The notes beneath the pieces are model-generated. The model searched no databases. It saw only the letters and a program-made list of their open reading frames with translations, and had not been told where the DNA came from. From NCBI GenBank assembly GCA_024672315.1, contig GCA_024672315.1_4714.1: a stretch of 64,000 nucleotides of DNA; one strand, 5' to 3'. Shown one piece after another: positions 8,221 through 63,126 of the stretch. The position numbers and the translations under genes were made by a program. The stretch is from a phage. How positions within the stretch are numbered: position 1 is the first letter of the stretch; every line of letters begins with the position of its first letter.

Positions 8221-8247
8221 ACCCTCCCCGCCTTATGCAGGGAGGGT
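8221..8247 (-). terminator. GC-rich hairpin, putative intrinsic terminator
   Basis: ACCCTCCC...GGGAGGGT inverted repeat followed on the minus strand by TTTAT; lies between the stop of 8262..8900 and the start of 7382..8179. Confidence 0.45.
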
Positions 8248-8261
8248 AGCCATTAAATGGA

Positions 8262-8900
8262 TTAACCTAATTTACCACCGGCGATATTGGTGAAATCTTC
8301 GCCATCAGGAACTTGCAGTAGGATACGTGCCATGTCCCAGTTGGTTAATGTGATTGCTTTATCATCGATACTCAGTTCTGGTAGGTCGAGTTCATGATCA
8401 TCAAACTCGTAGGAAATACTCCACGTTTCATCTGTTTTAGGATCGGTCATCAATACACCGTCTGTTACACGCATGTAGTCCGGATGCAGTTCATTACTGA
8501 ACGTACTGAACGGATCGGTGTAACATTCAGCATACCCCTCGATCTGCTGACGCTGTGCCTTCGTACGTAATTCAGGGCACGCCATGATCAGTTGTCGAGA
8601 TATACCGTTTGCCGCACGGAAGTCTTCCACGGTGATACATGGCATAACCACATCGTCATGGAAGATGTTCTCCGATTGTCTCAACAGCGTCTTACGGAGT
8701 TCAGCATAGTTTATCTGATTAAATGCGTCGAACGTTGCTAACGATTCAGCGTAAAAATGCTTTACGTGTTCGCTTGCGCCGCCGAGGCTATTCATCAGCT
8801 TGTGGCCGTACTCCATAAAGCTTTTATCGAGACCGGAGGACATTTCTCCGAACCTCAGTGCACGATAACTGTCTCGTCCACCTGTAAATATTTGCGCCAT
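8262..8900 (-). CDS. hypothetical protein
   Basis: 212-aa ORF; AAGGAGG RBS upstream of the ATG at 8900. Confidence 0.6.
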   Translation of the reverse strand: MAQIFTGGRDSYRALRFGEMSSGLDKSFMEYGHKLMNSLGGASEHVKHFYAESLATFDAFNQINYAELRKTLLRQSENIFHDDVVMPCITVEDFRAANGISRQLIMACPELRTKAQRQQIEGYAECYTDPFSTFSNELHPDYMRVTDGVLMTDPKTDETWSISYEFDDHELDLPELSIDDKAITLTNWDMARILLQVPDGEDFTNIAGGKLG

Positions 8901-8915
8901 TACAGGCGTCCTCCT

Positions 8916-9153
8916 TTAGCAATGGTTGTTAGTTGCTTCTATTTCGTCAAGATACGGTTCTACGTCATCGCCCTCCACGAATTCGTTGAACCAACAGTCA
9001 ATGGTAGAAATAACCGGTGACTGGTGTTCACATTTCTTAGATACCTTAAAAGGTACGTTATTATCCATCATACCGAGTTCGGGTCGAAAACGCCCGAAAT
9101 GTTTCGCAGTCCAAATGTCTGGGACGATATGGTTGTTCATAGCGTCTCCGTCG
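8916..9153 (-). CDS. RNA polymerase beta'-like subunit (nvRNAP-type), 3' exon encoding the catalytic loop
   Basis: In-frame minus-strand translation from 9153 reads DGDAMNNHIVPDIWTAKHFGRFRPELGMMDNNVPF..., matching the bacterial beta' segment DFDGDQMAVHVP...LMMSTNNILSP. The ORF track shows only a 74-aa fragment (8916..9140) because an in-frame stop lies upstream in the intron. Confidence 0.65.
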
Positions 9154-9530
9154 CTGTTTATCGACTATATCTTCATCCTCATTGCGAGGAGTCTCCCGTT
9201 TGGGTCTGTGTTTAACAGAGCCTACTCTACTCGACGTCGCGTCTTTCGATAGTCTGTGAGCACACATCTTAACAAACATTCGTGGATTCCTAAACAGGTG
9301 AATGTTCTTGTTGAGATGCTTCGCTGCGGATTATTCCCGTCCTACCTCTTTTACCGTACCCAGTTCATTACGCTGGCCCTCATCTATGTCACCACGATGA
9401 GTTGGTGTGTAGTCCGATTACAGAAACTTCCCGTCAATTAGAGAGTTTTAACTACGTTCCTGTTACCAGAAACCAGATCCCGACGGTATCAATAAATCAA
9501 CGTAAGTTATTGATTTAATTGAAAAAACTG
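9154..9530 (-). ncRNA. group I self-splicing intron (second intron in the nvRNAP-type beta' gene)
   Basis: Minus-strand core elements in canonical 5'-to-3' order: P-like AATTGACGGGAAG (plus 9427-9439), Q AATCCGCAGCG (9322-9332), R GCTCACAGACTATCG (9247-9261), S AAGATATAGTCGA (9161-9173). Exon nucleotide before the intron is U; intron ends in G at 9154. Only about 9 nt follow S, so no P9 is evident and the exact 3' boundary is uncertain. Confidence 0.6.
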
Positions 9531-9549
9531 AAATCTGCATTATCTAAAT
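9531..9549 (-). CDS. 19-nt micro-exon of the beta'-like gene encoding (Y)LDNADF
   Basis: Minus-strand AT TTA GAT AAT GCA GAT TT; joined to one upstream exon nucleotide (T) and to the downstream exon (C GAC GGA GAC) it gives YLDNADFDGD, restoring the universal NADFDGD Mg-binding motif. Flanked by intron 3' G (9550) and followed by the next intron. Confidence 0.5.
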
Positions 9550-9932
9550 CTTCAGTATGGTTCGCTACGCCATACCCGCACATACGTGCAACTTACGTCT
9601 TTCACGTAAGAAGAGACTATATCTTTCACCCTCAGCATTATCTGGTCGGGGCTCCCATTTCGGCGGTCATCTGACCGGTGGTTTCCCACGCCGCTTGGCC
9701 CTAACGCCCGTAAGCGATAGTCGTTGAGCGCATCTCCGTTCTGGAGACTTCGCTGCGGATTCCCCAATCCTTGCCGCTTTTACCATACCCGAATGATTAG
9801 TTCAGCCCCACGCGCTGTTCCCAGGCGTGGTTGGTGGACAAGGCTCTAAGTAGGTTCCCGCATTAGAGAGTTCCTCGTAACAACATTTCTGCGTTACTGG
9901 GCCTAACGACCCTTTCAAGATCATCACGCTTA
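9550..9932 (-). ncRNA. group I self-splicing intron (first intron in the nvRNAP-type beta' gene)
   Basis: Minus-strand P TAATGCGGGAA (plus 9855-9865), Q AATCCGCAGCG (9751-9761), R GCTCAACGACTATC (9716-9729), S AAGATATAGTC (9615-9625), P9-like hairpin CTTACG-tgaaaga-CGTAAG (9592-9610). The 5' boundary at 9933 is a best guess (exon ends in U, frame gives Tyr when joined to the micro-exon). Confidence 0.65.
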
Positions 9933-11151
9933 ACCCGATGGTGTTATCCTGCGGATCGCGTTTAACCTTGGTGATTTCAAGACATTGGTTACTGCTTCGG
10001 TCAAGTGATGGGTTTCGAACAAAGCCACACACAATCCCATCGAACGGTGTATCAGCAATAAGCTCATCATGCAGCTCGCTCATCATCGGATGATAATTAC
10101 GGACATGTTCCGCAACGAACGCACGTGCTGCTCTTGGTGAATAACCACGATGGAATAACTTGGATTGGATATGTTCTTTATTGGTTAAAGTAAATGGTGC
10201 GTATGGGAAATGCAGATGATAATAACGATGGTTCGCTGTTATCGAACTGATTACGGTACGCGTGGTAAATGGATGTAATGTACCTAATATGTTTTTACGT
10301 GTGATACCTTTCTTCTTACCGATGAACTCATCGAAAATCGCCGCATGGTATTGCAGCAGCTTCAATTGCACTTTCGCCATCCAGTTTTCTTTCTTTCTGG
10401 CGCTCAAAGGTGTTGTTGGATGATAGATACTGTTCAACGTACCGATAGCATCGATCGCACCTTCCATTTTGCTATCCGCATAACGACCGGTTGGCGTATT
10501 CTCGATAACGAACATCATGGCCGCAGGAAAGCTGATATACTGACTGAAGAACTTATCACGATGAATACGGATGAATTCTCGTAGCGTGTCAACTTTCTCC
10601 GTGTTCTTCGGTCCACGTAACGTCGGTCCTTTATACAAGATCTCCATGATGCGATCGAAGTTCTGTATAAAACTATTTACGCCACGTCGTATCCCGAATA
10701 CATCGAATTGCTGCTCCAGATAGTTCTTGAGTTCGATGGGTCGTTTTACATTTGGACGGTAACTGGCATCAATGAGCCACGTCATCGTTTCAAAGCTTTT
10801 GATATTCAACTCGCTTGCCAGCACGAGATGGACCAACGGGTTAATGAACGCATCGATTCCTTCAGGAACGCGCGCCCACACCGTCGAACGAATCTCCTGT
10901 TCTGCTGGGTAGGTTACAACCGTTTTACAGTTTGGACACACCGTGCCGAGCAGCTCACCACGATTGTAGAAACCACAACCACATTGTGGCGTGATATCCA
11001 ACGTATCGCTGGAGTAAACACGGGTGATAAAACTGTTTAATTTCTTCTTCTCTTCGACGACTTTTGTATCGTAATCGTTCAACAAAATCGGCGTAAAAGG
11101 AAGTTCTGCGAGCTGTCTATCGAAACTCACGATATCGAGCATGATGGCCAT
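9933..11151 (-). CDS. RNA polymerase beta'-like subunit (nvRNAP-type, N-terminal part), 5' exon
   Basis: Zn-finger-like CGCG...CPNC near the N-terminus; GKKKGITRKNILGTLHPFTTRTVISS resembles beta' [39 protein letters not shown] resembles NRAPTLHRLGIQAFEP (switch 2). ORF-track runs on to 9802, but the last ~43 codons are judged intron read-through. AGGAGA RBS. Lies immediately downstream of the chimallin candidate, as gp54-gp55 do in phiKZ. Confidence 0.7.
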
Positions 11152-11193
11152 GGGGTATCTCCTACAAATGAAAAAGAACGTTAGGACGTATAA

Positions 11194-11217
11194 GGGAGGG
11201 AGGTTGCCCTCCCTCCC
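11194..11217 (-). terminator. GC-rich hairpin, putative terminator/attenuator after the chimallin gene
   Basis: GGGAGGGAGG-ttgc-CCTCCCTCCC perfect 10-bp stem between the chimallin stop (11244) and the beta' start (11151). Confidence 0.45.
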
Positions 11218-11243
11218 GTCAGATTACATCGAACGTTCTTCCA

Positions 11244-13139
11244 TTAGAACAGGTTGAATGCCCCACCCATGTTGTTACCGCCAACATTCGGACGATCGCT
11301 ACGTGCGTAGATGTTGCCGGAGATGTTACCCAGACCACGAGCACGTGCTGCCATGTTACCACGAACAGCGGTACCTGCCAGGTGCTGGATGTTCTCAGGA
11401 CGGATGGTGAAGCCAGCATCAGCCGCAGCTTCGATCAGCGCCTGCAGTGCTAACGGATCGAAGTCGTAACGCATTGCCCAGCCGGTTTGTTCCCAGCTAC
11501 CAGACAGAACACGATCAATGATTTCGTGACGAGCGACAACACGCTGAGACATCGTCATATCGGTACGGTCGAAGCTGTCTTCCCAAGCTTCTACGGTATC
11601 CGGGTTAGTGATGTTCATCATGTACAGATCGTCCATATCACGAATATCGTGACGGTGACCATCCTGGTGGTTGTAGTAACCCAGCGGGATACGGTTACCG
11701 GTAGCGTAGACCAGCGGTTGGCCGTATTGATATTTCTTGCTGAAGCAACCCAGGGTAGTATCATCGAAGGCACGGTAGAGTGCTTTGTAACCTTCGGAGA
11801 TTTCTTGAACTTTACCGTCAACGTTGCCCGTAAAGATCTTCTCAGCCGCCGGGATCATACGCAGCAGCCAGCTATACTCGCCTTCTTCCGGTACGTCGAT
11901 AGAAATCAGCAGAGACGGATACAGAACCTGTTGCAGGAACTTGTAAATCTGCTCGTTGGTTTGCGTAGACAGATCCAGCGGTGCAGTCACTTCAGGATCC
12001 AGCACCATCGCCAGAGCACCTGGGTTATGCGGACCAATACCACGAGCCGCGTTGCTGATTAAAGACTGTGCCCATGCCATGCCGCTGTTCAGCGTAGCGA
12101 TGGTACCAATCAGACCCAGCACGAAGCTGTTCGGTGTGAACGCATCCAGCTCCAGCGGGTAAACGCTGGTCATCACGTAACGCGGCTGGTACTGTACAGT
12201 CGGCGGTACCGGATAGCCGTTAACCAGAACAGGGCCTTGGTTGAAGGTCGGGTTCTGCGGGCTGTAGGTCAGGTCAATGTAACCGGTGGTGGCGACCAGA
12301 CGCTGTTGACTATCGTAATCGCTCATCGCTTGACGGATGCGGTTAGAGATAGTTACAGTGATGTCAGAACGCACAGGGTTACCAACAATATCGCTGTCCT
12401 GCATACCGCTGGTGTTGTACTGAACGCTGCTGATTGGCTGATCGCTTGCCATCATGCCCAGGTTGAACTGCGGCAGACCCAGTTTATCACCGAGACGGAT
12501 TTCGATCGCGGTTTGGATTGCGTTATCTGCAGCAGACAGCAGGGTGGTTGCCAGATGCGCAGATTCAGCGGTGATTTCATTGGTCACCACAGCCAGACCA
12601 GCGATACGAACAGTACCGTTAGACTTACCGCCAATAGCTGAATACATTGCCGCCATGACTTCGTTGATGAACGTACCGTTCAGGTTATCAACCCAGGTAC
12701 GCGGTACCAGAATGTTACCATGCGGACCTTGTTCTTCACGACGCGGCAGCGGAGCCAGACCAGCAACCAGCGGCAGGACGTAACCGAAGAAGTGGTTATG
12801 ATCACCAACTTTTGCACCGCTCATAACAACCAGGGTCGGATACGGTACGCTGTACTGGTTCGGGTCAACCGCAACAAAGATGAAGTCGTCTTTGAACTGG
12901 GTATCTTCCAGATATTTCTCCATCAGACGACGGAGATTCAGTACCTGCTCGGAGCCGGTATTACGGCTGATACGACGGCTCAGTGTACGGTTGATCGTAC
13001 GCATCGTATGAGTTACTTTAGGACGGTCGGCAAAATCTGCAGCGGTTTCCAGCGCCTCATCAGCACGTTGTGCGGTGCGGGTTTCAGCTGCACGAATTTC
13101 TACATTATCGTTACCGTTATTACGTACGTCTAAGCCCAT
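11244..13139 (-). CDS. chmA: candidate chimallin (phage nucleus shell protein, ChmA-like)
   Basis: 631-aa ORF with AAGAGGAA RBS and codon usage typical of a highly expressed gene; early-promoter motif about 73 nt upstream; sits directly upstream of an nvRNAP-type beta' gene (phiKZ gp54-gp55 arrangement) and about 12 genes from the PhuZ homolog. Assignment is by size and synteny, not by a recognised motif. Confidence 0.55.
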   Translation of the reverse strand: MGLDVRNNGNDNVEIRAAETRTAQRADEALETAADFADRPKVTHTMRTINRTLSRRISRNTGSEQVLNLRRLMEKYLEDTQFKDDFIFVAVDPNQYSVPYPTLVVMSGAKVGDHNHFFGYVLPLVAGLAPLPRREEQGPHGNILVPRTWVDNLNGTFINEVMAAMYSAIGGKSNGTVRIAGLAVVTNEITAESAHLATTLLSAADNAIQTAIEIRLGDKLGLPQFNLGMMASDQPISSVQYNTSGMQDSDIVGNPVRSDITVTISNRIRQAMSDYDSQQRLVATTGYIDLTYSPQNPTFNQGPVLVNGYPVPPTVQYQPRYVMTSVYPLELDAFTPNSFVLGLIGTIATLNSGMAWAQSLISNAARGIGPHNPGALAMVLDPEVTAPLDLSTQTNEQIYKFLQQVLYPSLLISIDVPEEGEYSWLLRMIPAAEKIFTGNVDGKVQEISEGYKALYRAFDDTTLGCFSKKYQYGQPLVYATGNRIPLGYYNHQDGHRHDIRDMDDLYMMNITNPDTVEAWEDSFDRTDMTMSQRVVARHEIIDRVLSGSWEQTGWAMRYDFDPLALQALIEAAADAGFTIRPENIQHLAGTAVRGNMAARARGLGNISGNIYARSDRPNVGGNNMGGAFNLF

Positions 13140-13211
13140 TTGGGATTCCTCTTTTCTTAAACTTTATTAAATGACGTCATTGAATCAGCTTCTACTCGCT
13201 CATTCACCTAG

Positions 13212-13219
13212 GTAATATA
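13212..13219 (-). promoter_or_regulatory. putative phiKZ-type early promoter core (TATATTAC on minus strand)
   Basis: Plus-strand CCTAGGTAATATAACCC = minus-strand GGGTTATATTACCTAGG in the 254-nt divergent intergenic region upstream of the chimallin candidate. Confidence 0.55.
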
Positions 13220-13393
13220 ACCCTGAAATTTTTTTCAATATTGGTGTAACCGCATTGAACGATATAAACCCCTAGGCGAACGCTGCCGAGAAGCAACATT
13301 CTTTCTACATATAATCAGGATATGTCTGTAAACTTTTACTTCTCTTATTGAGAGTAATGTCATATCCGTTTACCATCTTCTTACGGAGTTCGT

Positions 13394-14488
13394 ATGTTTC
13401 GTGTTTTAAATAACCTCCCGCGAACATCATCGGGTGTGCAACCCGTCCCTCAGAAAGACTATCTAATACGCGAAGTTCAAAGAAACCTACAGACAATCCA
13501 GAACCACTATCAAGGTTTTACCTTCGCGGTTCAGAGCGATCACATCCTTGCGTTGCTGCTCGCACAGCTCCCTATGAGATACGACATCTCAGTACAAACT
13601 TACTACGACATGATTCTCGATCTTACCCCAGAATTGGGTAATCGTGTCAAGTTGACAACATCAAGATACGCGGGTAAGTTATTCGACGGTGCTTTCTATC
13701 CGGGATTGCACGAAGCTATTATTGCAACCGGTGAAAGTCGTCTTATTTCACGTGACGTTCTTGATAACTGGCGTAATTGGTCACCAGTTAGAATCGTGAC
13801 GCATCCATACGCAAATCTTCGTTACATTCCTCTTCACCGAAAGCAGATTGAAGAAGGACGAGGTTTTGCGGTTATTATGGTTGATGTGCCTTTATTAGCG
13901 CTACAGTATCGAATGTGGTCTTTGGTCATGGGTCATAACGACGACGGTAAATGGGTGGTTAAAGAACCGGTTACAAGCTTCCTTGCGAGTTTTCCGTTGG
14001 TTAACGCATTATACTCACACAACGATGTTGTTATACGCAATCGTTGTTTATGGATATCTCCGGCTAAGAATCCACTCAAATCACCAATTTACGTTAACGA
14101 CCTTGATAACGTATTCAGCCAAGTCGTTCTGTCCGTACAGCATCATTTATTACGAAGAAGACGAAGCTACACCGACATGCTTAAACAGATACCGAGTTTA
14201 TACGGAGATCAGTACCAAGCAACCCGAATGGGCTACACCGTCGATCTTCGACAAACACGATGGGCAAGGGATCTGGGTTGTCTGTCATTATGGCAACAAC
14301 TCGTCACATTGCAAAACGTATCTGAAAGCGTCGGGTTCAGCAGTCAAATCGATAATGACCTGTATCGTGCTGCCGACCGAAGTCTAAAAGAAGGTAACTG
14401 GGAGTCCTCTCCGTTACCTGGCGATTTAAGACGTGAAGTTATTGCACAGGTTGCCGACCTCTTAAAAATTCTTCCTGCTGGTGCATAA
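13394..14488 (+). CDS. hypothetical protein
   Basis: 364-aa plus-strand ORF divergent from the chimallin candidate; GGAG RBS; followed by a hairpin at 14508-14539. Confidence 0.55.
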   Translation: MFRVLNNLPRTSSGVQPVPQKDYLIREVQRNLQTIQNHYQGFTFAVQSDHILALLLAQLPMRYDISVQTYYDMILDLTPELGNRVKLTTSRYAGKLFDGAFYPGLHEAIIATGESRLISRDVLDNWRNWSPVRIVTHPYANLRYIPLHRKQIEEGRGFAVIMVDVPLLALQYRMWSLVMGHNDDGKWVVKEPVTSFLASFPLVNALYSHNDVVIRNRCLWISPAKNPLKSPIYVNDLDNVFSQVVLSVQHHLLRRRRSYTDMLKQIPSLYGDQYQATRMGYTVDLRQTRWARDLGCLSLWQQLVTLQNVSESVGFSSQIDNDLYRAADRSLKEGNWESSPLPGDLRREVIAQVADLLKILPAGA

Positions 14489-14507
14489 TCACCTCCCTCT
14501 TCCCTTG

Positions 14508-14539
14508 CATCCTCCCAACCCGTAAGGGAAGGGAGGATG
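14508..14539. terminator. GC-rich hairpin between convergent genes
   Basis: CATCCTCCC-(14-nt loop)-GGGAGGATG between the 3' ends of 13394..14488 (+) and 14555..16708 (-). Confidence 0.4.
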
Positions 14540-14554
14540 GGGTGGTGGATTATG

Positions 14555-16708: not shown

Positions 16709-16782
16709 AAATCCTCCAAAAGTTATTTAGTCTGTCTACATCATCTCGTATATCTGTTAAAAAAGAAGGACGGCATAAAAAA

Positions 16783-16810
16783 GAACCGATCCAGCCGAAG
16801 CCAGATCGGT
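16783..16810 (-). terminator. putative rho-independent terminator
   Basis: AACCGATC-(12-nt loop)-GATCGGTT followed on the minus strand by CTTTTTTAT; downstream of the 17008..17421 gene. Confidence 0.5.
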
Positions 16811-17007
16811 TAAAAAGGATAATAACTGACAGAAAGATATCGATGATGTTCGTGAAACAAGATCTTCTCTCGTGCACAATGATGCTAGATCAGAGGGAGG
16901 TTGTAACACGAGAGGCGATTCGCCAAAGAAGGAATAAAAAACACGAATCTATCTTATTTCACTGATGGCACTAACCACTCAAAATATATAGTACTGTATG
17001 TAAAAGT

Positions 17008-17421: not shown

Positions 17422-17432
17422 AATAGCATCCT

Positions 17433-20394: not shown

Positions 20395-20485
20395 ACTCTT
20401 TTCCTAAGTCCCCATTGTTTATACACACGATATCTGGGAATAGTTAAAATATACGGCGTAAAACGAAGCAGGAGAGTTTCTGACG

Positions 20486-20806: not shown

Positions 20807-20859
20807 GCTTTCTCCTACGCGGCATAAAAGCCTGCCCCGAAGGACAGGCTCGATAGAAC

Positions 20860-22985: not shown

Positions 22986-23512
22986 TTAACGATAGCTTCC
23001 TCCCTCGGTGTTTTCGAGGGAGGTATTTGCCGTTTAAACACTTTCAGCACGTTCGTAAATTCAGCAGCAATAATACAGGCCGAGGTTGATAGCTTATTGC
23101 TGAAAATGAGATCGTCCGGTAAACAATCGAACTGAATACCGTATTGCGTCTTTGTCTCATCAACGATCAATGACGGTGTCGATCTTGTCTTCGCAATGTC
23201 GGTGATATACAAACGTAAAAATAATTCACCGTCTTCGCTATCCATAAAACGATAGGCGTTACCAGAAAACGCAACACATGGTGTAACGATAAATTGAACA
23301 CGATCGTCGATCGGATGGATATTTAACCAACGTTCGATATCATTACTACTCACATTTTGCATATTTACTACGGTAAAAGCAAATAGCGTATCGTGATGCT
23401 TGGAATAATGCAGCACATACGCCGCACCTTTCTTTTTGTGAATCCCTTCAATGTATTCTATTGTCGTATAGCCGGATTTATATAGCTTTACTTGCGGTTT
23501 CTCACTCATCAT
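22976..23512 (-). CDS. hypothetical protein
   Basis: ORF-track 22976..23593; start moved to ATG 23512, which overlaps the upstream stop (ATGATGA). Confidence 0.45.
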   Translation of the reverse strand: MMSEKPQVKLYKSGYTTIEYIEGIHKKKGAAYVLHYSKHHDTLFAFTVVNMQNVSSNDIERWLNIHPIDDRVQFIVTPCVAFSGNAYRFMDSEDGELFLRLYITDIAKTRSTPSLIVDETKTQYGIQFDCLPDDLIFSNKLSTSACIIAAEFTNVLKVFKRQIPPSKTPREEAIVNQK

Positions 23513-26048: not shown

Positions 26049-26303
26049 GATAGAAATCCTTAGTATATTTGATATGTTGTTTAATTGACATATTAAGTTT
26101 AAAAGAGGTTATGTTTTACGTATTGTTAATAACGTATTCTTATCTCTATTAAGTTATGTTCTATCTAAAGATAGTAAACAGATATAATGCTCCCCACCTC
26201 CCCATTCTCCCAAGTAATACTGGCCTACCGGCCCTCTCCTTTTTAAGGGAGAGAGTAAGCATTCAGTATTGCTCAAATGAATAAGCAAAACAGTATAAAC
26301 TTA

Positions 26304-26327
26304 CCGTCTCGAGATAACTCGAGACGG
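26304..26327 (-). terminator. putative intrinsic terminator
   Basis: CCGTCTCGAG-ataa-CTCGAGACGG perfect 10-bp stem just downstream of the 26354 stop; followed on the minus strand by TAAGTTTATACTGTTTT. Confidence 0.5.
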
Positions 26328-26353
26328 CGTAGTATCTGTTTATCTCTTTTATG

Positions 26354-29189: not shown

Positions 29190-29341
29190 CAATGTAACGG
29201 TAAAACTTTACTGACGTTGGTTATTATTTGAAGCATAGGGCTTCACCCAGGAGTACCATCCCTTTAAGTCGTTTGTCCTCTCCTGGTTAACTGTCGTTCT
29301 CTCACAGTGCTCGACAGACCAAAAATGCTCAGGCCTCATAG

Positions 29342-29370
29342 CCTCCTCTGGGAATGGAACCCAGAGGAGG
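29342..29370 (-). terminator. GC-rich hairpin, putative terminator
   Basis: CCTCCTCTGGG-aatggaa-CCCAGAGGAGG perfect 11-bp stem downstream of the 29383 stop. Confidence 0.45.
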
Positions 29371-29382
29371 ACTATGTTTGCC

Positions 29383-29735: not shown

Positions 29736-29765
29736 AGTCTCCCCGCCTATATTAACGGGGAGTCT
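29736..29765 (-). terminator. hairpin downstream of the terminase gene
   Basis: AGTCTCCCCG-(loop CCTATATTAA)-CGGGGAGTCT with one mismatch; lies between the terminase stop (29777) and the next start. Confidence 0.4.
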
Positions 29766-32019: not shown

Positions 32020-32048
32020 CGATGGAGGGTGCCCAGCACCCTCCATCG
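32020..32048 (-). terminator. GC-rich hairpin abutting the terminase RBS
   Basis: CGATGGAGGGTG-cccag-CACCCTCCATCG perfect 12-bp stem; its 3' arm ends immediately before the GGAGGAG of the terminase gene. Confidence 0.45.
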
Positions 32049-40439: not shown

Positions 40440-40465
40440 CGTAAAAAAAAAGCATATTAACCTCC

Positions 40466-40500
40466 CTTCCTTCCCTAGCCGTCAAGGCCGGGGAAGGAAG
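40466..40500. terminator. bidirectional intrinsic terminator
   Basis: CTTCCTTCCC-(15-nt loop)-GGGAAGGAAG perfect 10-bp stem; T-rich run follows on the plus strand (GTTTATGGTTTATTT) and a T9 run on the minus strand; lies between convergent genes. Confidence 0.6.
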
Positions 40501-40513
40501 GTTTATGGTTTAT

Positions 40514-41466: not shown

Positions 41467-41569
41467 AGCGCTAACCCCAAAGGATAAAAATAAAACCTTG
41501 ACATAACCACCACCGCAACCCCATACAGGGCTACGGTGGGGTCATACAGAGAGACGTGTTAGGTTACAA

Positions 41570-42985: not shown

Positions 42986-43087
42986 CTTTTAAATTCCTAC
43001 TTAACAATAAAGTTCATATACGGCGTATGTATCCGTAGAATAATGGGTTCTGGTAAGATCTTACATCAAAATGACGGCATAAAAAGT

Positions 43088-43115
43088 ACCTCCTTACCCA
43101 CATGGGTAAGGAGGT
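43088..43115 (-). terminator. putative rho-independent terminator
   Basis: ACCTCCTTACCCA-catg-TGGGTAAGGAGGT palindrome followed on the minus strand by ACTTTTTATGCC; downstream of the 43269 stop. Confidence 0.5.
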
Positions 43116-43268
43116 TCGTCCATCACGACGAAAGGACGTTATGTGACGCGGTGTCCATAACGGCCCTGGTAGCAGGCATCAAAGATAACAAAAAGGATGT
43201 AAGTTGAGCTAAACCACCTAAATACGGTAACGATTACTTCCGTACACAATATAACGTAACGTATTTTT

Positions 43269-47432: not shown

Positions 47433-47458
47433 GAGCAGGGGCATGACGCCCCCTGCTC
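47433..47458 (-). terminator. intrinsic terminator immediately after the RNAP beta-like gene
   Basis: GAGCAGGGG-catgacg-CCCCTGCTC hairpin starting 1 nt after the TAA at 47459-47461, followed on the minus strand by GTTTATTTCG; a T-rich run also follows on the plus strand. Confidence 0.6.
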
Positions 47459-51805: not shown

Positions 51806-51808
51806 GGG

Positions 51809-51988: not shown

Positions 51989-52507
51989 CCTTGTCTTCGC
52001 CTCAGGTCGCTACGCTGAGACCGCCTGCGTGGATACGTACATCACAGGCTGCTTGCACTTTCATGCAAGAGGAGACTATATCAAACCGTCAGCTTCACCT
52101 GCTACGGTAACCTACACTTCGAAGACGCTTGTCCTCTACAGGGTGGTAAATCCCTTAGTCGTTGAACCTGCGTTGTTTCACATTCTTGTTTGCAAGAATG
52201 CCGTATTGCTACGCAACAACCAGGCTGCTGATTGCCCATTATCACGCACCTTAGCACCGCTTACGCGGCTTTTCTTTCAGCCTAAGCCTCCGTGGGAGGT
52301 AGTGCATCTCAACTGTTGTTTCCGCCTTTCGGCACCTCATGGGTTGTTGAGCTTTAGGGGTTCCCAGCAATTCGTAGGTTTTTCAAGCACTCCCTTTCGG
52401 GAATACCGGACCAATTCAGTTAGTAAACAACATTATTACCATCCCTCATTCTTAAGGGTTAATTTTTTAAAATGATAAAATTAATGTGTTTTTGGGCTAA
52501 CTCGAAG
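51989..52507 (-). ncRNA. group I self-splicing intron in the vRNAP-type beta' gene
   Basis: Minus-strand P CGAATTGCTGGGAA (plus 52361-52374), Q AATCAGCAGC (52225-52234), R GGTTCAACGACTAA (52155-52168), S GATATAGTC (within 52072-52084), P9-like hairpin CTTGCA-tgaaag-TGCAAG (52052-52069). Exon nucleotide before the intron is U (52508); intron ends in G (51989). Splicing gives ...YLAGLGGD|FDGDTV.... Confidence 0.7.
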
Positions 52508-57200: not shown

Positions 57201-60200
57201 GATCTACAAACAGCTTGACAAGACGCCCGACGTTTACGTCAAGGGAGAATCAACGCCTCGTCTGTTGTCCATGGTGTTAGCAGCGGGTGGGTATTTCCGT
57301 CGGTCGGATGGACAAGTCATCAAAAATCTTGAAGACATCGATGGTGATGTTGTTGATGCACAAGGTAACGTCGTACTTACGCTTGCCGACATGCAGAAAG
57401 GACTTGTCGATAAATACGGTAAAGCGATTCGTCGCTTAAAAGAAAAGCTCATCAACTTCGGTGTAAAAGCTTTTACGTTACCGTTAACGCTGCTACGTAA
57501 GACAAAGGACATCCTTAAAGCCCTTCCAGGTAAAGCCGTTAACGGTCTACGACGGATGGGATTAAACTTCCAATCACCTGACGCATTACTGGTGGGAACA
57601 ACGTCGAGTATGGTAGATCGTCTCGATGCGATTTACCAGCTTCTTGACCAGCGTATGCCGGGTGGTGATAAGGATTACCGCGATTGGAATGGCGATGGTG
57701 TTCGAGAAGGATCGCTGGAAGACCTAAAACGTAAGCGTGAAGCCAAGGAAAACGGTAAGGACGACACCGGCAAAGATTCCAATAAAGGGGAAGAAAAGGA
57801 GAAGAAACGAGGATTACTCGGAAGCCTTTTCGATATGCTCGGCGATACCGCATTAGGCAAACGACTCATGGCGAGTCCGCTTGGAAAAATTCTAGGTGGT
57901 CTTGGGGCGGTGTTAAGCGGCGGTGCATCGTTAACCGGGTTGTTGGGCAAGGGTCTCATTAGTGGAACCGGCGCGCTGGTCAAGGGGGGACTAAGTGCGG
58001 CAGGATGGTTAGGACGTGGTGCGTTAATGGCGGGTGGGGCCGCGTTGAACGCCGTTGGTGGGTTATCGGGATTAGGTGCATTCCTTATCTCACCTGTTGG
58101 GCTTGCTATCGCTGGCGGTGCATTGGCTGCTTATGCTGGATGGAAGATCTATCAGCATTTCGCTGAGAAGCCTGACCCGATGCAGAAACTCCGTCTTATT
58201 GCATACGGTGCAAAAGGGGACGATAAAGACTTCAATAAGAAGCTGCTTGCGACAGAAACATACCTCACCGATCACGTGGTTATGACCGGGGATACCATCG
58301 GATTCGATCCGAAAGCGGATTCTGAAAAGATTCTCGAAATCTGGGAATTGTCCCTGGAAGATTCCGACCGAATGAACGAATGGAAACGCTGGTATCTGCA
58401 TCGTTTTATTCCTGTTTTCGCTCGTGCGTACAAACTCTGGAAAGAGCATATGCCGGACGAGAAGAAATACATGGAAATGGATAAATATCCGAACGGTGAG
58501 AACAAAGTGAAATGGTCGGAAGCGTTTATCTGGCCTTCCGATAGTCCTGACGGTCCGTATTACGTCGAAGCTAACCCGTTGGGTTCTTCTGGTGCGACGC
58601 GTTATATTGCTGGTCAAGACGTCAAAACCTTGATGCTGAAACAACTCGAAGCCATCAAGAAAGAGTACCAGAATCAGATTAAGCAATACACTCATGATGA
58701 GGCTATTGCTGATTGGTCACGGATGTCTGACACGCAACGTAAATCCGTTGCGCCTAACGCATTACGCGGTCAGAAAGCGTCGTTACGTTTTAACGATAAA
58801 CGTTACAACAGTGCTGGCGCTAAAGGACGACAGAAGCTTGACGCAACCGCGGTTATTGAAAGCGTAGACCGTCGTGGTAGAAAATGGGTTGCCGGTGGAT
58901 ACATCGATGAACTCACCAGTCTCCGTGTTCGTGCGTACGGTATCAAGGTTCCGTTGTTAAGTCAGATAAAAGTGCTGATGGAACTCGAAGACGCTGTAGA
59001 ACCTGGCGTAGTCGCTGAAGGTAAAGGTGTTAAATACGGTGGCGATCTTGTTGCGCTCTACAAGAAATTCGCGACGAAGTTCGGAAGAGACGTTAACAGC
59101 AAGCGGGATCAGGATATCTGGTTCGCTTGGATGAATAACCGTTTCCTGCCCGTCTTTTTAACCTATTACCAACAAGTTAGCGACATGGGCGGTCAAGGAC
59201 TTCTGTCCGACGTGGTACAGAACCTGAAAGACAGCCAACGCTGGGAAATCGGTGAAGCACTTGTCGCAACGCAATACCGTGATGAGAAAGGTACACTGCA
59301 GCCTGTATGGTCCTGGAATAGTTGTGGTTTCTCCGGTACTGAAGCTAACACCACCAGCAGTTCAACAAAGAGCCAGCTCGATCTGTTAAAAGAATATGCG
59401 GATAAAGAGAAGGTTCGTGAGAAGAACGCGGAAGCATCGCAAGAGGATGCCGATAAATTATCGAAGATCCAAGAGCTGATGATGAAGCAGGCTGGGTACG
59501 AGAAGAAAGACGGTGTCTGGCAGAAGAAATCACGCATTACCGGCGGGATGAGTAACGCCGAAGCGAATTACAACCCCAATGGGAATAGGGTAGGTGCAAG
59601 CAGCTTTACTGCTTCGGCTACTTCCAGTGCTGGGTTGGGGTCAACCGGCGATCTTACTGGATTGCCTAACATGGGCTTACAGAAACCTGCAATGGGACCA
59701 GGTCCTGAAGCTGGACGTCGTGCGCTTGTTAAATCCGCTGTAAAACGCGGCATTACCGATCCAATGGAAATGGCGATGTTCCTCGCGAACATCGAACATG
59801 AATCAGGGAACTACACTCACGTACGTGAGGGGAACTATAAGACACCAGAGCGTCTTAAACAGGTCTTCCCTTACAAATTCCGTGATGTACAGGATGCCGC
59901 ACAGACGATCAGCATGGGGCCGGAAGCGGTATTCGAACGTGTGTATGGTAATCGTAAAGATCTCGGGAACACACAGAAAGGGGACGGGGCGAAGTATTTA
60001 GGACGTGGCTTCATTCAGGTTACCGGTAAAGCTAACTACGCTCGTCTGTCCAAGACCTTGAATAAGGATCTTGTCAGCGATCCGACATACCTGGAAACGC
60101 CGGAAGGTGCGGCGGAAGGTAGTGTCGCATGGTGGCTCAACCGAGGTAACGTGTTACGCGATCCCGCAAAACGGGGTGATGTACGCCAAGTTCGTTATCT

Positions 60201-60885
60201 GGTTAACGGCGGTTTTAACGGATTACGCGATGTTGAACAACGTTCAGCTTATTGGATTCAGGCGGCTAAGAATGGCACCCTGAAGAGAATGATGGACGAG
60301 TTATCAGGGTCAACATCAGACGATCAAGCTGAAGGACCGACCACTGCCGAACAGGTGAAGAACGAAGCAGCACAAGAGGCAAACGGAACACCTGCTGTAA
60401 GCAACGATCCGCAAGCCCCAGTATCTTCTACTACCCCTGAAGCTAAACCGTCTGCGGCTGCCGGGACGGCCCCAGCACCTGGAGAAGCATCACCAACGCC
60501 TGGAAGTTTCGAAACAGCAAAAGCCGCGGCAGGACAACCGACATCAACTCCAGCACCTAGCGATTTGCCGTCAAACCCGGGCGCAAATCGAGGGATATCG
60601 GTTCCGAATACGCCTGCACAGGTTGCGCAGTCTGCGACACAAACATCGGTTGCAAGTGAGAACTTCTACGGTAGCGCAGGTGAAATTCTCCGACAGCAGC
60701 TGACCACGCAGCAGAACATCGAGAAGAACACCGGTAGAACGAATGAACTTATTTCGGAATTAATCCAAGCCGTTAAGGGTTCTTCTATCGGTAAGGGTTC
60801 TGCAGGTCCTTCTCAACAACAGACGATGTCGCTACCTAATCGTCCGCAAGGAATCTCTCCAACACGGACAAGGTACGCACAGTAG
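54220..60885 (+). CDS. giant virion-associated protein with C-terminal GH19-type lysozyme domain (phiKZ gp181-like)
   Basis: ORF-track 54103..60885 begins at a TTG; ATG at 54220 has GGAGG 7 nt upstream. A Gly/Ala/Leu-rich hydrophobic segment (LGGLGAVLSGGASLTGLLGKGLISGTGALVKGGLSAAGWLGRGALMAGGAALNAVGG) lies mid-protein; the C-terminal domain contains IEHESGNYTHVREG and YLGRGFIQVTGKANY, typical GH19 lysozyme/chitinase signatures. Gene order (RNAP beta, beta', giant hydrolase) matches phiKZ gp178-gp180-gp181. Confidence 0.8.
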   Translation: MVDKTRVEGDDNWDNWDEDFSLDLDFNEPKDDRKPITRFAIGAVKGAAEDLTSYERMKEIARNALPKGYSDGMDLIDSAVGSTKELYNEAVRDVLPKVQSSKRLAAQLTKKYRASMPDFSKKILEQWEREAKEEDERKHAEETLRQRMASAGDDEIARKVAEALGESANQNADQFAEQQAKESIRDDIADKRYAVTNKQMSAMQEGVAKMVGFNNEFAARYMRKSLELKYRSLAIQRASFDQHKKLAEVYIGLLQNIQKNTALPDAAKAKMSEEFRRSAYQRFFGNALDAMGSFENRFFADVKKNLATNALGALKGVVSGANDALYGLNEARDSMSMMDGMGSEGDIKEMQGKMLGQFIGSTVAPWMANKGRMALRDLAKRHPNAKFASALKAVDQGGEAAAYTTRNLGKLLQEDIRKNEFNLSDPFYKQLIRGAGRWAFNMDSGRNFRVMNDTAETLAEQTSFDGLTYRSINEVIPGFLARILKSSEGIRTGNSDPDYEVYDGISGQFVSQRTREQSVNDTLFNKRTFGYYASRFNEVISVIDPDKKLSEKARKALAKQLARDSDANIAFDPARFTDESNFDRSIDRDAIKELSTYFRDRYGIRDDINDKGERHQVIGNRGQYYTERNRADLRYGNLKSLQPDIQRNLNLLKRTGDVQYLERIGIVTRNSDGSYSVNHDRYFSEIDRYIDRPEYAERNDVNTRLTAQETRALALGYRDAKPSADDVQNAGLPHIGRKAVGTVTVDENIGYDKWWNDTGVITTSLEEQNRAWQELYLEALSEASEQRTEMLALLKAISEKDRSNNVSLDGEDVPEGTAPISFIDRAKQKLGARNPFKGGRNLLWKGIKNTARWGVKGARWGAERTLGSLVNSGRRIINFNRFVFGALSKVDQVPFDIYVKGESQPRILAAKLRQGLYFDEATGKAVKRMKDIKGPLVDADGNIVISNEDIEKGLVTRAGRAFENSGLKAWAREGLNGITTVLSLPRMLKRGAVEIYKQLDKTPDVYVKGESTPRLLSMVLAAGGYFRRSDGQVIKNLEDIDGDVVDAQGNVVLTLADMQKGLVDKYGKAIRRLKEKLINFGVKAFTLPLTLLRKTKDILKALPGKAVNGLRRMGLNFQSPDALLVGTTSSMVDRLDAIYQLLDQRMPGGDKDYRDWNGDGVREGSLEDLKRKREAKENGKDDTGKDSNKGEEKEKKRGLLGSLFDMLGDTALGKRLMASPLGKILGGLGAVLSGGASLTGLLGKGLISGTGALVKGGLSAAGWLGRGALMAGGAALNAVGGLSGLGAFLISPVGLAIAGGALAAYAGWKIYQHFAEKPDPMQKLRLIAYGAKGDDKDFNKKLLATETYLTDHVVMTGDTIGFDPKADSEKILEIWELSLEDSDRMNEWKRWYLHRFIPVFARAYKLWKEHMPDEKKYMEMDKYPNGENKVKWSEAFIWPSDSPDGPYYVEANPLGSSGATRYIAGQDVKTLMLKQLEAIKKEYQNQIKQYTHDEAIADWSRMSDTQRKSVAPNALRGQKASLRFNDKRYNSAGAKGRQKLDATAVIESVDRRGRKWVAGGYIDELTSLRVRAYGIKVPLLSQIKVLMELEDAVEPGVVAEGKGVKYGGDLVALYKKFATKFGRDVNSKRDQDIWFAWMNNRFLPVFLTYYQQVSDMGGQGLLSDVVQNLKDSQRWEIGEALVATQYRDEKGTLQPVWSWNSCGFSGTEANTTSSSTKSQLDLLKEYADKEKVREKNAEASQEDADKLSKIQELMMKQAGYEKKDGVWQKKSRITGGMSNAEANYNPNGNRVGASSFTASATSSAGLGSTGDLTGLPNMGLQKPAMGPGPEAGRRALVKSAVKRGITDPMEMAMFLANIEHESGNYTHVREGNYKTPERLKQVFPYKFRDVQDAAQTISMGPEAVFERVYGNRKDLGNTQKGDGAKYLGRGFIQVTGKANYARLSKTLNKDLVSDPTYLETPEGAAEGSVAWWLNRGNVLRDPAKRGDVRQVRYLVNGGFNGLRDVEQRSAYWIQAAKNGTLKRMMDELSGSTSDDQAEGPTTAEQVKNEAAQEANGTPAVSNDPQAPVSSTTPEAKPSAAAGTAPAPGEASPTPGSFETAKAAAGQPTSTPAPSDLPSNPGANRGISVPNTPAQVAQSATQTSVASENFYGSAGEILRQQLTTQQNIEKNTGRTNELISELIQAVKGSSIGKGSAGPSQQQTMSLPNRPQGISPTRTRYAQ

Positions 60886-60895
60886 TCATTAGTTA

Positions 60896-60916
60896 AGGGC
60901 GGGAGATTCCCGCCCT
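60896..60916 (+). terminator. putative intrinsic terminator
   Basis: AGGGCGGGA-gat-TCCCGCCCT followed by CTTCTTG, 10 nt after the stop of the giant gene. Confidence 0.45.
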
Positions 60917-60934
60917 CTTCTTGAGGAATGTTAC

Positions 60935-63076
60935 ATGGGTATTCTTGTTCAAAACGCCCTAATAACCAAACAAGCGTTTTTATTACCTGGCGATAGCAGC
61001 ACGCTTAGTGCTGACATGATTAAAGCGAGACATACACCGTATTCCTACGATAACGTCGATGATACCACCTTAGGTGGGAACTGGGTGCTTAACCCGCCAC
61101 CGCAATATACCAAATTTGCCGACATCAAAGAACGCCGACGTGCGGTTATGCCGGGATCAACGGGCATGGGCCGAGGCTATAGTGAAAGCATTAACAGCTT
61201 TAAAGAAGTCGTTACCTTACGATTCGGTAAACCTCGCTTTACAGGCGCAAGTATCTTCTTTACCGATTTCTACGACGCCGATGTTGCCGTAACGGTTAAA
61301 ACCGGTCGCGATCCCGGTATTCTTTATTACGCAGCCAAAGCGTATACCACCGTTCTTTCTTACCTCACACCGCTACCTTACCTGTATATGGTTGGACGTA
61401 TCGGTCGATATTTCCTGGGTAAGCCTACCAGTCAATATTACTATCAAGTACCAACCATGCACGTGTATTGGGCGTCTTTCCAGACGCTGGTAAACCAAAC
61501 AGCGATAAACATGGGTCTTATCGCCGGTGCCGGTAAAGATAAAGGCTACGTGGAAGAAGGGGGTACCGTACTCCATCAATATTCAATCGGTGGTCAGAAC
61601 GTTGAAGAATTCATCAACTACGCCTCTAAGACGCTACCGGGGATTTATAAGAAAGGTGGTGGGATCGATATCTACCAGATTGCAACACGTCGTCAGCGTA
61701 TACAAAACGCATGGGTACGTCGTATTCAATCCATGATGGAAAACGATTACTCGTCTTACGAGGAGTTCTGGAACGATCTTGATAAACGACTTGATAGCGG
61801 AGCATTTCCATCGGATGTAACCGGTCGTACGTTAACGCAGTATCTCGCCGACACACAGAAGTCTGCTGTTTACAGTGCGACAGCTGGTGATAATAAACAA
61901 ACGATGGACGACCTTTTATTCGGAAGGGCCTCATACACCAACAAGGATGCTGATGCTAACTTCAATGTCTCAGCGGCTACCTCCGACGGCGGTACGTCAA
62001 CACAGAGTCAGGGTACAACAGCCAATGTCGGTAATTCAACATCGGGGACAACGCAGGCTTCAACAGCAGCATCCACGGCTGGAGGCGCGAACGTACAGAG
62101 CAAAGGAATCGGACAAACGAATGCAGCCGAAGAAGCTACGTTTCTTGATCTGATGGACGCTGAATTGGCCGACGGTGCTCAGTTCATCAGTTTTCGAGTC
62201 GATTCTGTCACCAGTGTAACCGAAACGTTTTCAAACAGTGCTTCAGAAAGTTCAATCGCACAGACGATGAACAGCCGTGCACAAGCGAACATCGAACGTC
62301 GTTTCACCCTCTCCGGCGGTAATACAGGTTGGGCTGTACTGGACGAAGCCATCAAAGCCGGTTCCGACCTCGTTAATGGCGCTATTTCCGGGATGGGTTT
62401 GGATGGTATTTTTGGTGCCTTCATGGGTTCCGGCTTCGCTGACATTCCGAAATTCTATTCTGGGTCTTCGGTAAGTCTACCGCGTGCGGATCTGACGATG
62501 GAATTGCGTTCCTGGAGTGGGGATCGTTGGTCGATCTTTACGAACCTCATGGTACCTCTTTTAGCGATCCTTGCAGGTGGTTTACCTCAGGCTACCGGTA
62601 AATCGTCCTACGGGATGCCATTCATGTGTGAGTGTTATATTCCCGGTAAAGTCCAGATTAAAATGGGTCTTATCGATAACATCACTGTGACGCGTCATGT
62701 TGGGAACGTACCATCAACGCGTGAGCGATTACCGTTGGGTATCGATGTCAGCTTCAGTGTTTATGACCTGTCGTCCATCGTCGCCATGCCGATCACAACG
62801 ACAGCCGCATCGATCGCAAAACTGGATCCTCGTGGCTTCTTAAGTGATCTTCTTGCTGATGATACCCCACTCAACAACTATCTTGCTGTATTATCGGCAT
62901 TGACACTTACGGAACAAGTTTACATGATTCCTGATTTAAGTCGTCGTATGCATAAAACCATGGCCGATATCGATAGTTTCTGGAGCAAAGGTAATTTTGC
63001 TAGCTGGTTATCTGACACCATGCCAGGCAGGATAGCATCAGGGCTGTTATGGAAACGTACAGAACGACCGTTCTGA
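60935..63076 (+). CDS. hypothetical protein, probable virion protein
   Basis: 713-aa ORF directly downstream of the giant hydrolase gene; S/T/G-rich central region. Confidence 0.5.
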   Translation: MGILVQNALITKQAFLLPGDSSTLSADMIKARHTPYSYDNVDDTTLGGNWVLNPPPQYTKFADIKERRRAVMPGSTGMGRGYSESINSFKEVVTLRFGKPRFTGASIFFTDFYDADVAVTVKTGRDPGILYYAAKAYTTVLSYLTPLPYLYMVGRIGRYFLGKPTSQYYYQVPTMHVYWASFQTLVNQTAINMGLIAGAGKDKGYVEEGGTVLHQYSIGGQNVEEFINYASKTLPGIYKKGGGIDIYQIATRRQRIQNAWVRRIQSMMENDYSSYEEFWNDLDKRLDSGAFPSDVTGRTLTQYLADTQKSAVYSATAGDNKQTMDDLLFGRASYTNKDADANFNVSAATSDGGTSTQSQGTTANVGNSTSGTTQASTAASTAGGANVQSKGIGQTNAAEEATFLDLMDAELADGAQFISFRVDSVTSVTETFSNSASESSIAQTMNSRAQANIERRFTLSGGNTGWAVLDEAIKAGSDLVNGAISGMGLDGIFGAFMGSGFADIPKFYSGSSVSLPRADLTMELRSWSGDRWSIFTNLMVPLLAILAGGLPQATGKSSYGMPFMCECYIPGKVQIKMGLIDNITVTRHVGNVPSTRERLPLGIDVSFSVYDLSSIVAMPITTTAASIAKLDPRGFLSDLLADDTPLNNYLAVLSALTLTEQVYMIPDLSRRMHKTMADIDSFWSKGNFASWLSDTMPGRIASGLLWKRTERPF

Positions 63077-63094
63077 TATTCACCGCATAAACCC

Positions 63095-63126
63095 CCCTCT
63101 CCCTTCCCTGATGGGTCGGGAGAGGG
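63095..63126. terminator. GC-rich hairpin between convergent genes
   Basis: CCCTCTCCC-(14-nt loop)-GGGAGAGGG between the ends of 60935..63076 (+) and 63133..63933 (-). Confidence 0.45.

Follow-up and report, generated by a model that had tools for sequence, protein, structure and literature searches.

The window analysed here is a 64,000-nucleotide (nt) stretch of phage DNA (GenBank assembly GCA_024672315.1, contig GCA_024672315.1_4714.1). It comes from a Goslar-like chimallivirus jumbo phage, being 96% identical by megablast to Escherichia phage vB_EcoM_Goslar (MK327938; hereafter Goslar), in which its counterpart occupies approximately 159.8-223.8 kb. Gene calls were carried from Goslar to the window by tblastn, and each start, stop and upstream ribosome-binding site was checked. 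The genes lie mainly on the minus strand; the gaps of at least 15 nt between them, which were taken as intergenic DNA, add up to 4,655 nt (7% of the window). Within these gaps lies a family of very stable hairpins, many with one arm rich in pyrimidines (Y) and the other rich in purines (R), which are considered here as candidate transcription terminators.

Stable, arm-segregated hairpins between genes

Hairpins were sought with a perfect-stem enumerator, with whole-gap folds and with a core-stem enumerator allowing one interruption, and the same very stable set was obtained from all of these. The core-stem enumerator was used in place of RNALfold-style folding in 60-nt windows, which gave 1,380 loose structures in which weak outer pairs absorbed the TTAT tails described below and diluted the arm composition. 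A hairpin was called strong at a folding free energy (dG) of -14 kcal/mol or lower, and skewed if one arm was at least 75% Y or R. The gaps contain 18 strong loci, 11 of them skewed, compared with means of 1.3±1.1 and 0.3±0.55 when the same gaps were dinucleotide-shuffled 200 times. In coding DNA, which offers 13 times more sequence, 33 loci reach this cut-off; a single one of these is skewed (Fisher p=6.7e-6), and this one (22999) lies 13 nt past the G202 stop codon within the overlapping convergent gene G203. At a dG of -18 or lower, 13 of 16 loci are intergenic. When the hairpins were folded singly, their z-scores relative to shuffles ranged from -3 to -6.5, with the exception of 26232 (z=-2.2).

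These values bear out a first-pass annotation of the sequence, which had described at least twelve intergenic hairpins with a pyrimidine arm and a purine arm, had named fold energies and shuffled gaps as checks, and had taken a similar hairpin frequency in coding regions as grounds for refutation, a similarity that is not seen here. There are 12-13 loci with an arm of at least about 75-80% Y or R (one, 6756, lies just outside the range covered by that annotation), and its quoted examples were all located, at 8221-8247 (ACCCTCCCTGC/GCGGGGAGGGT), 29342-29370 (CCTCCTCTGGG/CCCAGAGGAGG) and 40465-40501 (CCTTCCTTCCC.../...GGGGAAGGAAGG). The pyrimidine arm comes first at ten loci (6756, 8221, 14508, 22999, 26232, 29342, 29739, 40465, 43088 and 63094), where the 5' arm is 73-100% pyrimidine, the lowest value being that of 29342. 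The purine arm comes first at 11194, 47433 and 60896, and partly so at 32020, while five other strong hairpins (2126, 16784, 20828, 26303 and 41501) have arms of mixed composition.

The position of the hairpins and their behavior on the two strands are both directional. The stem begins 0-30 nt past a stop codon in 18 of 23 strand-specific cases. Within same-strand gaps, the sense strand has approximately 25 G-U pairs and the antisense strand 3, and folding is much more favorable for the former (-25.2 versus -12.3 at 6756, and -32.8 versus -18.7 at 41501). All four hairpins in convergent gaps (14508, 29342, 40465 and 63094), on the other hand, are perfect Watson-Crick hairpins with equal energy on both strands. 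Placement after stop codons and G-U pairs nearly confined to the sense strand are what would be expected of RNA-level elements acting along the direction of transcription, which argues against a role at the DNA level. As a pyrimidine-first hairpin stays pyrimidine-first on the complementary strand, the arm style is suited to two-way use.

Between the convergent genes G190 and G191 (14490-14548), the two-tier palindrome CATCCTCCC-AA-CCC-GTAA-GGG-AA-GGGAGGATG is extended by an outer stem, has no G-U pair and is followed by ATTATG on both strands; on its sequence, it reads as a bidirectional terminator. So does the palindrome CCTCCTCTGGG-7 nt-CCCAGAGGAGG between G211 and G212 (29337-29376; z=-6.3 and -6.5), which stands between CATAG and CTATG. 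The hairpin between G218 and G219 (40459-40511) is two-tiered and pyrimidine-first, CCTTCCTTCCC(U)AGCC-GUCAA-GGC(C)GGGGAAGGAAGG, with the tails TTTATG on the plus strand and TTAATATG on the minus strand. The fourth, between G233 and G234 (63085-63134), is again two-tiered, with pure Y and R arms (CCCTCTCCC-UU-CCC-UGAU-GGG-UC-GGGAGAGGG) and TTATG on both strands.

Within a few bases of most stems in the window there is a TTAT, usually TTATG and often TTATGCCG(T). The TTATGCCG tail is exact at 8221, 16784, 20828 and 43088 and approximate at 63094, 14508, 40465, 41501, 11194 and 47433; eight copies of it are present where 2.3 are expected, and four of these directly follow hairpins. TTAT or TATG occurs no more than 12 nt from the stem at about 14 of 19 loci. 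TTATG follows 7 of 33 strong strand-specific hairpins within 13 nt, compared with a background of 0.7%, an enrichment of approximately 30-fold; the rest of the Goslar genome behaves like the window, while 50 kb of phage T4, used as a control, gave 0 of 8. From 70 hairpin-linked TATGs in the window and 150 kb of Goslar, the consensus T-TATG-C(56%)-Y(78%)-G(49%)-T(43%) was obtained, and this CYGT context was not seen at other intergenic TATGs in the same comparison. The tail, the most sequence-specific part of the element, is absent from the first-pass account, which had instead described U-rich tracts after several hairpins. That description holds only in part, since the tails are short and usually have TTAT(G) in place of a long U run.

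Relatives of the hairpins in Goslar and other phages

Goslar carries a stereotyped element, CCCTCCTCC-AA-CCC-GTAA-GGG-AA-GGAGGAGGG-N1-3-TATG-CTGT, and its GenBank record labels several copies "putative transcriptional terminator". When 22 Goslar copies were aligned, 98.7% of pair cells were paired, versus 86% after shuffling and 51-71% with the partner columns slid. Covariation is seen at six of 11 pairs, and C-G and U-A make up nearly all of the pair types; the copies thus vary by C-G/U-A exchange, which keeps the pyrimidines on the 5' arm. A covariance model, R1, was built from these 22 copies, none of which came from the region orthologous to the window. R1 matches six window loci with E values from 5e-11 to 0.02: 63094, the best match to the model (5e-11, both strands), 14508 (1.7e-9 and 2.7e-8), 40465 (8e-6 and 3e-3), 22999 (5e-4), 43088 (2e-3) and 8221 (0.021). 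At gathering thresholds, Rfam reported a group I intron in the window and no curated family covering these hairpins. The exact two-tier pattern was found in 3 of 2.9 million IMG/VR contigs, namely Goslar and two relatives, at about 10-13 copies each; since the window is approximately 95-96% identical to each of the three, it is a fourth member of this lineage.

Outside the lineage, R1 matched about 14 post-gene sites in the first 50 kb of phiKZ, in which terminators have been mapped by ONT-cappable-seq. That study defined 133 termination regions, including bidirectional ones between convergent genes, and derived from 61 terminators the motif 5'-BCCYCCCCHWWDGGGRRGGBYTTATKYYGT-3', which coincides with mapped RNA 3' ends (Putzeys et al. 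2024, PMC10914365). In phage 201phi2-1, 132 termination sites were mapped, and motif A (n=59) "strongly resembles" the phiKZ motif; eight terminators spanning the motifs were strong in a two-reporter trap in uninfected Pseudomonas (PMC11512511). As termination in an uninfected host is the work of the host RNA polymerase, the evidence does not call for specific recognition by a polymerase of the phage or by an RNA-binding factor.

The ten pyrimidine-first loci share with the phiKZ motif and motif A a C/T-rich 5' arm and a G/A-rich 3' arm. The window hairpins also resemble the phiKZ terminators in the TTATG-YYGT tail just 3' of the stem (the tail consensus given above is that of phiKZ, TTATKYYGT), in their location just after genes, with palindromic CATA...TATG copies between convergent genes, and in the many copies per genome, both sets being found by the Goslar-built model. 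The geometry differs: phiKZ stems are fixed at 7-8 bp with a 4-nt loop (7 bp in the published consensus, which also has a 2-nt spacer), whereas window stems have 9-14 bp and many consist of two tiers, in which a 2x2 internal loop sets off an inner CCC/GGG stem. The longer and often two-tiered stems explain why the published phiKZ consensus has no match in the window at up to 3 mismatches, versus 5 in 50 kb of phiKZ. These five phiKZ sites are all R1 matches and all end in TTATG; the terminator of the phiKZ major capsid gene reads CATAGGCCCTCCC-TTCG-GGGAGGGC-TTTATG-TTGT. A further difference from phiKZ is that some terminators in the window keep the tail with mixed arms and some have the purine arm first.

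Canonical Rho-independent terminators likewise consist of a GC-rich stem-loop after a gene and a T-containing tract, and 6756, 16784, 43088 and 47433 pass a generic terminator scan (which lists 6770-6752, 16811-16784, 43115-43088, 47458-47433, 32020-32048 and 29342-29370). A canonical terminator has about five or more U in the eight positions right after the stem. The window elements depart from this type in that usually only UUAU is left of the U tract, before a conserved G and CYGT, the stem sequences are related to one another, and the arms are strongly segregated, a segregation seen neither in the T4 control nor in chimallivirus SPN3US. R1 had no significant match in T4 (a single weak one at E=0.055) and none in the 40 kb of SPN3US examined (positions 1-40000), where post-gene terminators are ordinary hairpins with an A tract, a stem and a long U tract. 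The motif is therefore lineage-specific and not a universal chimallivirus feature.

Compared with their Goslar orthologues, the window stems show either no difference or exchanges of wobble for Watson-Crick pairs (6756, 14490 and 41501), and substitutions fall in loops (22999, 26303, 29739 and 47433) and flanks. At four places the loop or central segment is inverted relative to Goslar with the stems unchanged: 43100-43103 (AUGU/ACAU), 60905-60907 (GAU/AUC), 41513-41535 and 63104-63117, the last reading UUCCCUGAUGGGUC in the window and AACCCGUGAGGGAA in Goslar. The loop of 32020 (32033-32035) may also be inverted. At 41501, two changes after the inversion created G-U pairs on the sense strand only. 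Four to five flips among about 19 loci at 96% identity point to frequent hairpin-mediated inversion or template switching in the DNA.

Termination and the alternatives

With a probability of roughly 80%, we consider the hairpins to be RNA-level transcription terminators of a Goslar-like chimallivirus, belonging to the sequence-conserved class known from phiKZ. The observations made here concern the structure and position of the hairpins, their strand asymmetry and tail motif, their membership of one family and their detection across genera; that they terminate transcription in the window phage, and on which polymerase they act, is inferred, the 3'-end data being those of phiKZ and 201phi2-1 and the in vivo termination that of 201phi2-1. 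The first-pass annotation had suggested a phage-specific signal as opposed to generic terminators, and this stands in part. The hairpins are a related family with a lineage-specific style, as the R1 matches and the likeness to the phiKZ motif indicate, but by their placement after stop codons, the direction of their G-U pairs and the two-way hairpins of convergent gaps they are most likely still terminators. The signal is lineage-specific, but this kind of terminator has already been described in related phages, and it does not in itself point to a new factor.

According to this reading, the nascent RNA would fold into a very stable GC-rich stem 0-30 nt past the stop codon, the polymerase would then stand on a short U-A-U tract 2-8 nt beyond the stem, and the transcript would be released. 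In convergent gaps, a perfectly complementary palindrome flanked by CATA...TATG would halt transcription from both sides. The arm composition would be accounted for if the copies are derived from a single template or constrained to it: compensatory change would proceed solely through G-U intermediates (C-G <-> U-G <-> U-A), by which a purine is never moved to the 5' arm. This cheapest compensatory path is the covariation actually seen in the 22 Goslar copies. A G-rich 3' arm beside UAU-G may in addition be favored for its function, and an arm made up solely of purines or solely of pyrimidines, which cannot pair with itself, would favor fast and unambiguous folding.

Several observations weigh against this reading. 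The number of U residues in the first 10 nt after the stems is 0-7, mostly poor tracts of 2-5; the generic scan misses 8221, 14508, 40465, 63094, 22999 and 29739; TTAT is lacking at 2126, 26232 and 60896; and the three or four purine-first loci have no match to R1. Given the long-U terminators of SPN3US, the motif is not a general requirement of chimallivirus polymerases. No transcript-end map of Goslar or of the window phage was found in the literature searched, and processing, or an exonuclease stalling at the hairpin, could in principle account for the 3' ends that were mapped in relatives.

How such poor U tracts might suffice can be considered in terms of pausing. The elemental pause consensus of multisubunit polymerases has G at -10/-11, Y at -1 and G at +1. 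The sequence GG-N8-UAU-G with its G-rich 3' arm fits this consensus and could replace a long U tract. More specifically, the invariant TATG might be a polymerase-specific pause signal, re-engaged by the promoter pocket of the non-virion polymerase and taking over from the U tract, a proposal that is tentative and somewhat unlikely. With the active site at the G of TATG, the RNA 3' end would be UAU and the base of the stem would lie 5-8 nt behind, the geometry of hairpin-driven release. If true, this would explain the purine arm on the 3' side, the conservation of the tail from Pseudomonas to Escherichia coli phages and the core shared by promoters and terminators.

The shared core raises a different explanation, according to which the elements are composite terminator-promoter cassettes, TATG being the late-promoter core of the non-virion polymerase, so that one transcript ends and the next starts. 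Late promoters of phiKZ have a TATG consensus with the start at its G, the motif being essential in vitro (Yakunina 2015, PMC4666361), and in the non-virion polymerase it is the beta-like subunit that recognizes TATG, in the non-template strand (PMC12809450); the same four bases form the invariant part of the window and Goslar terminator tail. In tandem gaps, TATG stands 17-100 nt upstream of the next start, which at 20828 would give a 17-nt leader containing AGGAG. However, all four convergent gaps, in which a promoter would have no downstream gene to serve, have TATG 3' of the stem on each strand, and at 8221 the TATG includes an annotated start codon. In addition, the prototype late promoter, phiKZ P119L, has no upstream hairpin: promoter TATGs of this sort lie in AT-rich surroundings, whereas terminator TATGs have a stem before them and CYGT, not found at other intergenic TATGs, after them. 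We regard a cassette as unlikely. The divergent gaps, where promoters must lie, at 13364 (minus strand), 27908 (plus), 37400 (plus) and 37433 (minus) contain a repeated (A)TATGACA, which, from its sequence, may be the Goslar-lineage form of the phiKZ TATG late promoter, set apart from the terminator tail by AC in place of CYGT.

It is quite improbable that the hairpins, with no termination involved, serve to stabilize or process RNA or to bind a phage protein such as ChmC, an RNA-binding protein associated with the nuclear shell. Conservation beyond the needs of pairing (the AA/AA internal loop, the inner CCC-GTAA-GGG stem and the CYGT tail) would suit this view, and 3'-end mapping in relatives alone cannot separate termination from processing, but in uninfected cells a two-reporter trap shows termination by the 201phi2-1 elements (PMC11512511). 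Moreover, the ChmC peaks seen by eCLIP in PhiPA3 lie 25-30 nt downstream of start codons and have no motif. RNase III substrates comprise about 20 bp, or about two helical turns of near-continuous duplex; the core stems here have 9-16 bp, short of that length, and only 41501 reaches 21 pairs, wobble pairs included.

Very improbable, too, is a function as translational operators, in which a pyrimidine arm would sequester a Shine-Dalgarno purine arm and so control or couple translation of the downstream gene. That some hairpins abut ribosome-binding sites, as the first-pass annotation had noted, is correct for 8221, 20828, 32020 and 60896. At 8221, the arm GGGGAGGG ends 3 nt before the annotated G183 start codon; 32020 and 60896 directly adjoin ribosome-binding sites; and the 43088 arms AAGGAGGT and ACCTCCTTA are a perfect Shine-Dalgarno/anti-Shine-Dalgarno mimic. 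However, the downstream ribosome-binding site lies inside an arm in one of about 13 hairpins (8221), and there the start is itself doubtful. Most downstream genes have a separate Shine-Dalgarno sequence of their own, and 32020, 20828 and 60896 are simply packed against the site of the next gene; convergent-gap copies have no downstream gene at all, and the purine-first copies would be left unexplained. The family as a whole cannot be accounted for by Shine-Dalgarno sequestration.

Least probable are selfish or recombinogenic dispersed DNA repeats (REP/MITE-like) or cruciform sites tolerated in gaps, for although about 10-13 near-identical 32-nt palindromes occur per Goslar-type genome and the inversions at 4-5 loci between close relatives reveal hairpin dynamics at the DNA level, sense-specific G-U pairs in tandem gaps are meaningless for DNA, the placement 0-30 nt past stop codons is tight and the directional tail is conserved, and the same motif class occurs in phiKZ, which has no nucleotide similarity.

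Taken as terminators, the hairpins have the following implications: the phiKZ/201phi2-1 terminator is extended to the E. coli-infecting Goslar lineage, in an elaborated two-tier and often bidirectional form; the consensus and the covariance model are usable and should aid operon-end annotation in Goslar-like phages; compact, strong, bidirectional terminators for E. coli would be useful engineering parts; and the sharing of TATG between promoters and terminators bears on pausing and termination by sigma-less phage polymerases. The two-tier palindromic architecture and the shared TATG core represent a modest novelty.

Individual loci and neighboring features

The minus-strand hairpin at 8213-8247 (ACCCTCCCTGC-AUAAG-GCGGGGAGGGT, tail TTATGCCG), pyrimidine-first and 14 nt past the G184 stop, bears on gene annotation. 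The annotated start of G183 is the ATG within its tail (8218), where the arm GGGGAGGG is followed by TTT-ATG. An in-frame ATG 39 nt downstream (8179) has a normal ribosome-binding site, GAGGA-CAATC-ATG, which makes the annotated start doubtful; judging from the sequence, it may be an artefact in which the terminator mimics a ribosome-binding site plus start codon. A G-rich arm followed by TATG is thus an annotation trap, which may be misleading gene callers elsewhere in Goslar-like genomes.

Five further hairpins are pyrimidine-first. The one at 6756-6787 on the minus strand (GGTCTCTCCCTACC-UUCG-GGTGGGGAGGGGCT; dG -26, z=-3.9) lies 10 nt past the G182 stop, and its four G-U pairs are confined to the sense strand; a long U tract, ACCCATTCTTTTTTATTTTT, forms the tail and has TTAT at +12. 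On the plus strand, 22999-23023 (CCTCCCTCGG-UGUUU-UCGAGGGAGG, then TATTTGCCGT; z=-4.9) follows G202 and falls in the 3' end of G203. At 29739-29762 (minus strand), CTCCCCGTT-AAUAUA-GGCGGGGAG begins 14 nt past the G213 stop and has the tail ACTATAGCGTATTAT. The minus-strand hairpin at 43075-43115 (ACCTCCTTACCC-AUGU-GGGTAAGGAGGT, tail ACTTTTTATGCCGT; z=-5.4) occupies the 283-nt gap between G223 and G222. The 5' arm of its core (43088-43115), ACCTCCTTA, is identical to the 3' end of E. coli 16S ribosomal RNA (rRNA); with the 3' arm, TAAGGAGGT, the stem is a perfect copy of the Shine-Dalgarno/anti-Shine-Dalgarno duplex. The weak pyrimidine-first hairpin at 26232-26255 (minus strand; CTCTCTCC-CUUAAAAA-GGAGAGGG) in the 305-nt gap between G208 and G207 has no TTAT tail, and its membership of the family is doubtful.

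Purine-first hairpins are found on both strands. On the minus strand, GGGAGGGAGG-GCAA-CCTCCCTCCC at 11194-11217 (z=-5.2) is followed directly by TTATACG, 26 nt past the G189 stop, and sits within a longer stem ending in CTTTTTCATTT; 47433-47458 (GAGCAGGGG-8 nt-CCCCTGCTC, tail GTTTATTTCG) comes immediately past the G228 stop and is an annotated terminator in Goslar. Mostly purine-first is the minus-strand hairpin CGATGGAGGGTGC-UGG-GCACCCTCCATCG at 32020-32048 (z=-5.4), 10 nt past the G214 stop and followed directly by GAGGAGTTTATATG, the ribosome-binding site and start codon of G213. On the plus strand, 60896-60916 (AGGGCGGGA-GAU-TCCCGCCCT) is squeezed between the G232 stop, 10 nt upstream, and the G233 start, 18 nt downstream.

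The remaining hairpins, all on the minus strand, have arms of mixed composition. That at 16771-16811 (AACCGATCTGGC-UUCG-GCTGGATCGGTT, tail CTTTTTTATGCCGT), an annotated terminator in Goslar, has the tail motif of the family without the Y/R arms. The hairpin at 20820-20851 (GAGCCTGTCC-UUCG-GGGCAGGCTT, then TTATGCCG), also an annotated terminator in Goslar, lies between the G200 stop, 8 nt upstream, and the G199 start, 21 nt downstream. At 26303-26328, GCCGTCTCGAG-UUAU-CTCGAGACGGT with the tail AAGTTTATACTG is located 25 nt past the G208 stop. The long hairpin at 41501-41547 (CCACCGTAGCCCU-GUAU-GGGGTTGCGGTGG; z=-6.1), 30 nt past the G221 stop, has an outer stem containing TTATG and five G-U pairs, all on the sense strand. 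The strongest hairpin of the window, at 2126-2161 (16 bp, UUCG loop, dG -26.5, four sense-only G-U pairs), overlaps the annotated GTG start of G175; with mixed arms and no TTAT, it is outside the family. A C(UUCG)G tetraloop closes several terminator-like hairpins (6770-6773, 16796-16799, 20838-20841 and 2142-2145), unlike the two-tier copies, which have loops of the GUAA/UUAC type.

Three long same-strand gaps of 283-305 nt (16709-17007, 26049-26353 and 42986-43268) each contain a terminator hairpin and further predicted structure, and could hold small RNAs, as reported in phiKZ-like phages, or small unannotated open reading frames.

The window also differs from Goslar in its introns and homing endonucleases. 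Rfam places its group I intron at 52052-52436 on the minus strand. The HNH/NUMOD1 homing-endonuclease genes Goslar_00186 and Goslar_00230 are absent from the window, and the other group I intron annotated in Goslar was not called by Rfam in the window. Within 9140-9910, approximately 368 nt of DNA additional to that of Goslar is present at 9544-9910, adjoining sequence homologous to this second intron. Loss of an intron from the RNA polymerase gene G188 was considered and rejected, as BLAST finds the intron-homologous DNA present in the window but rearranged.

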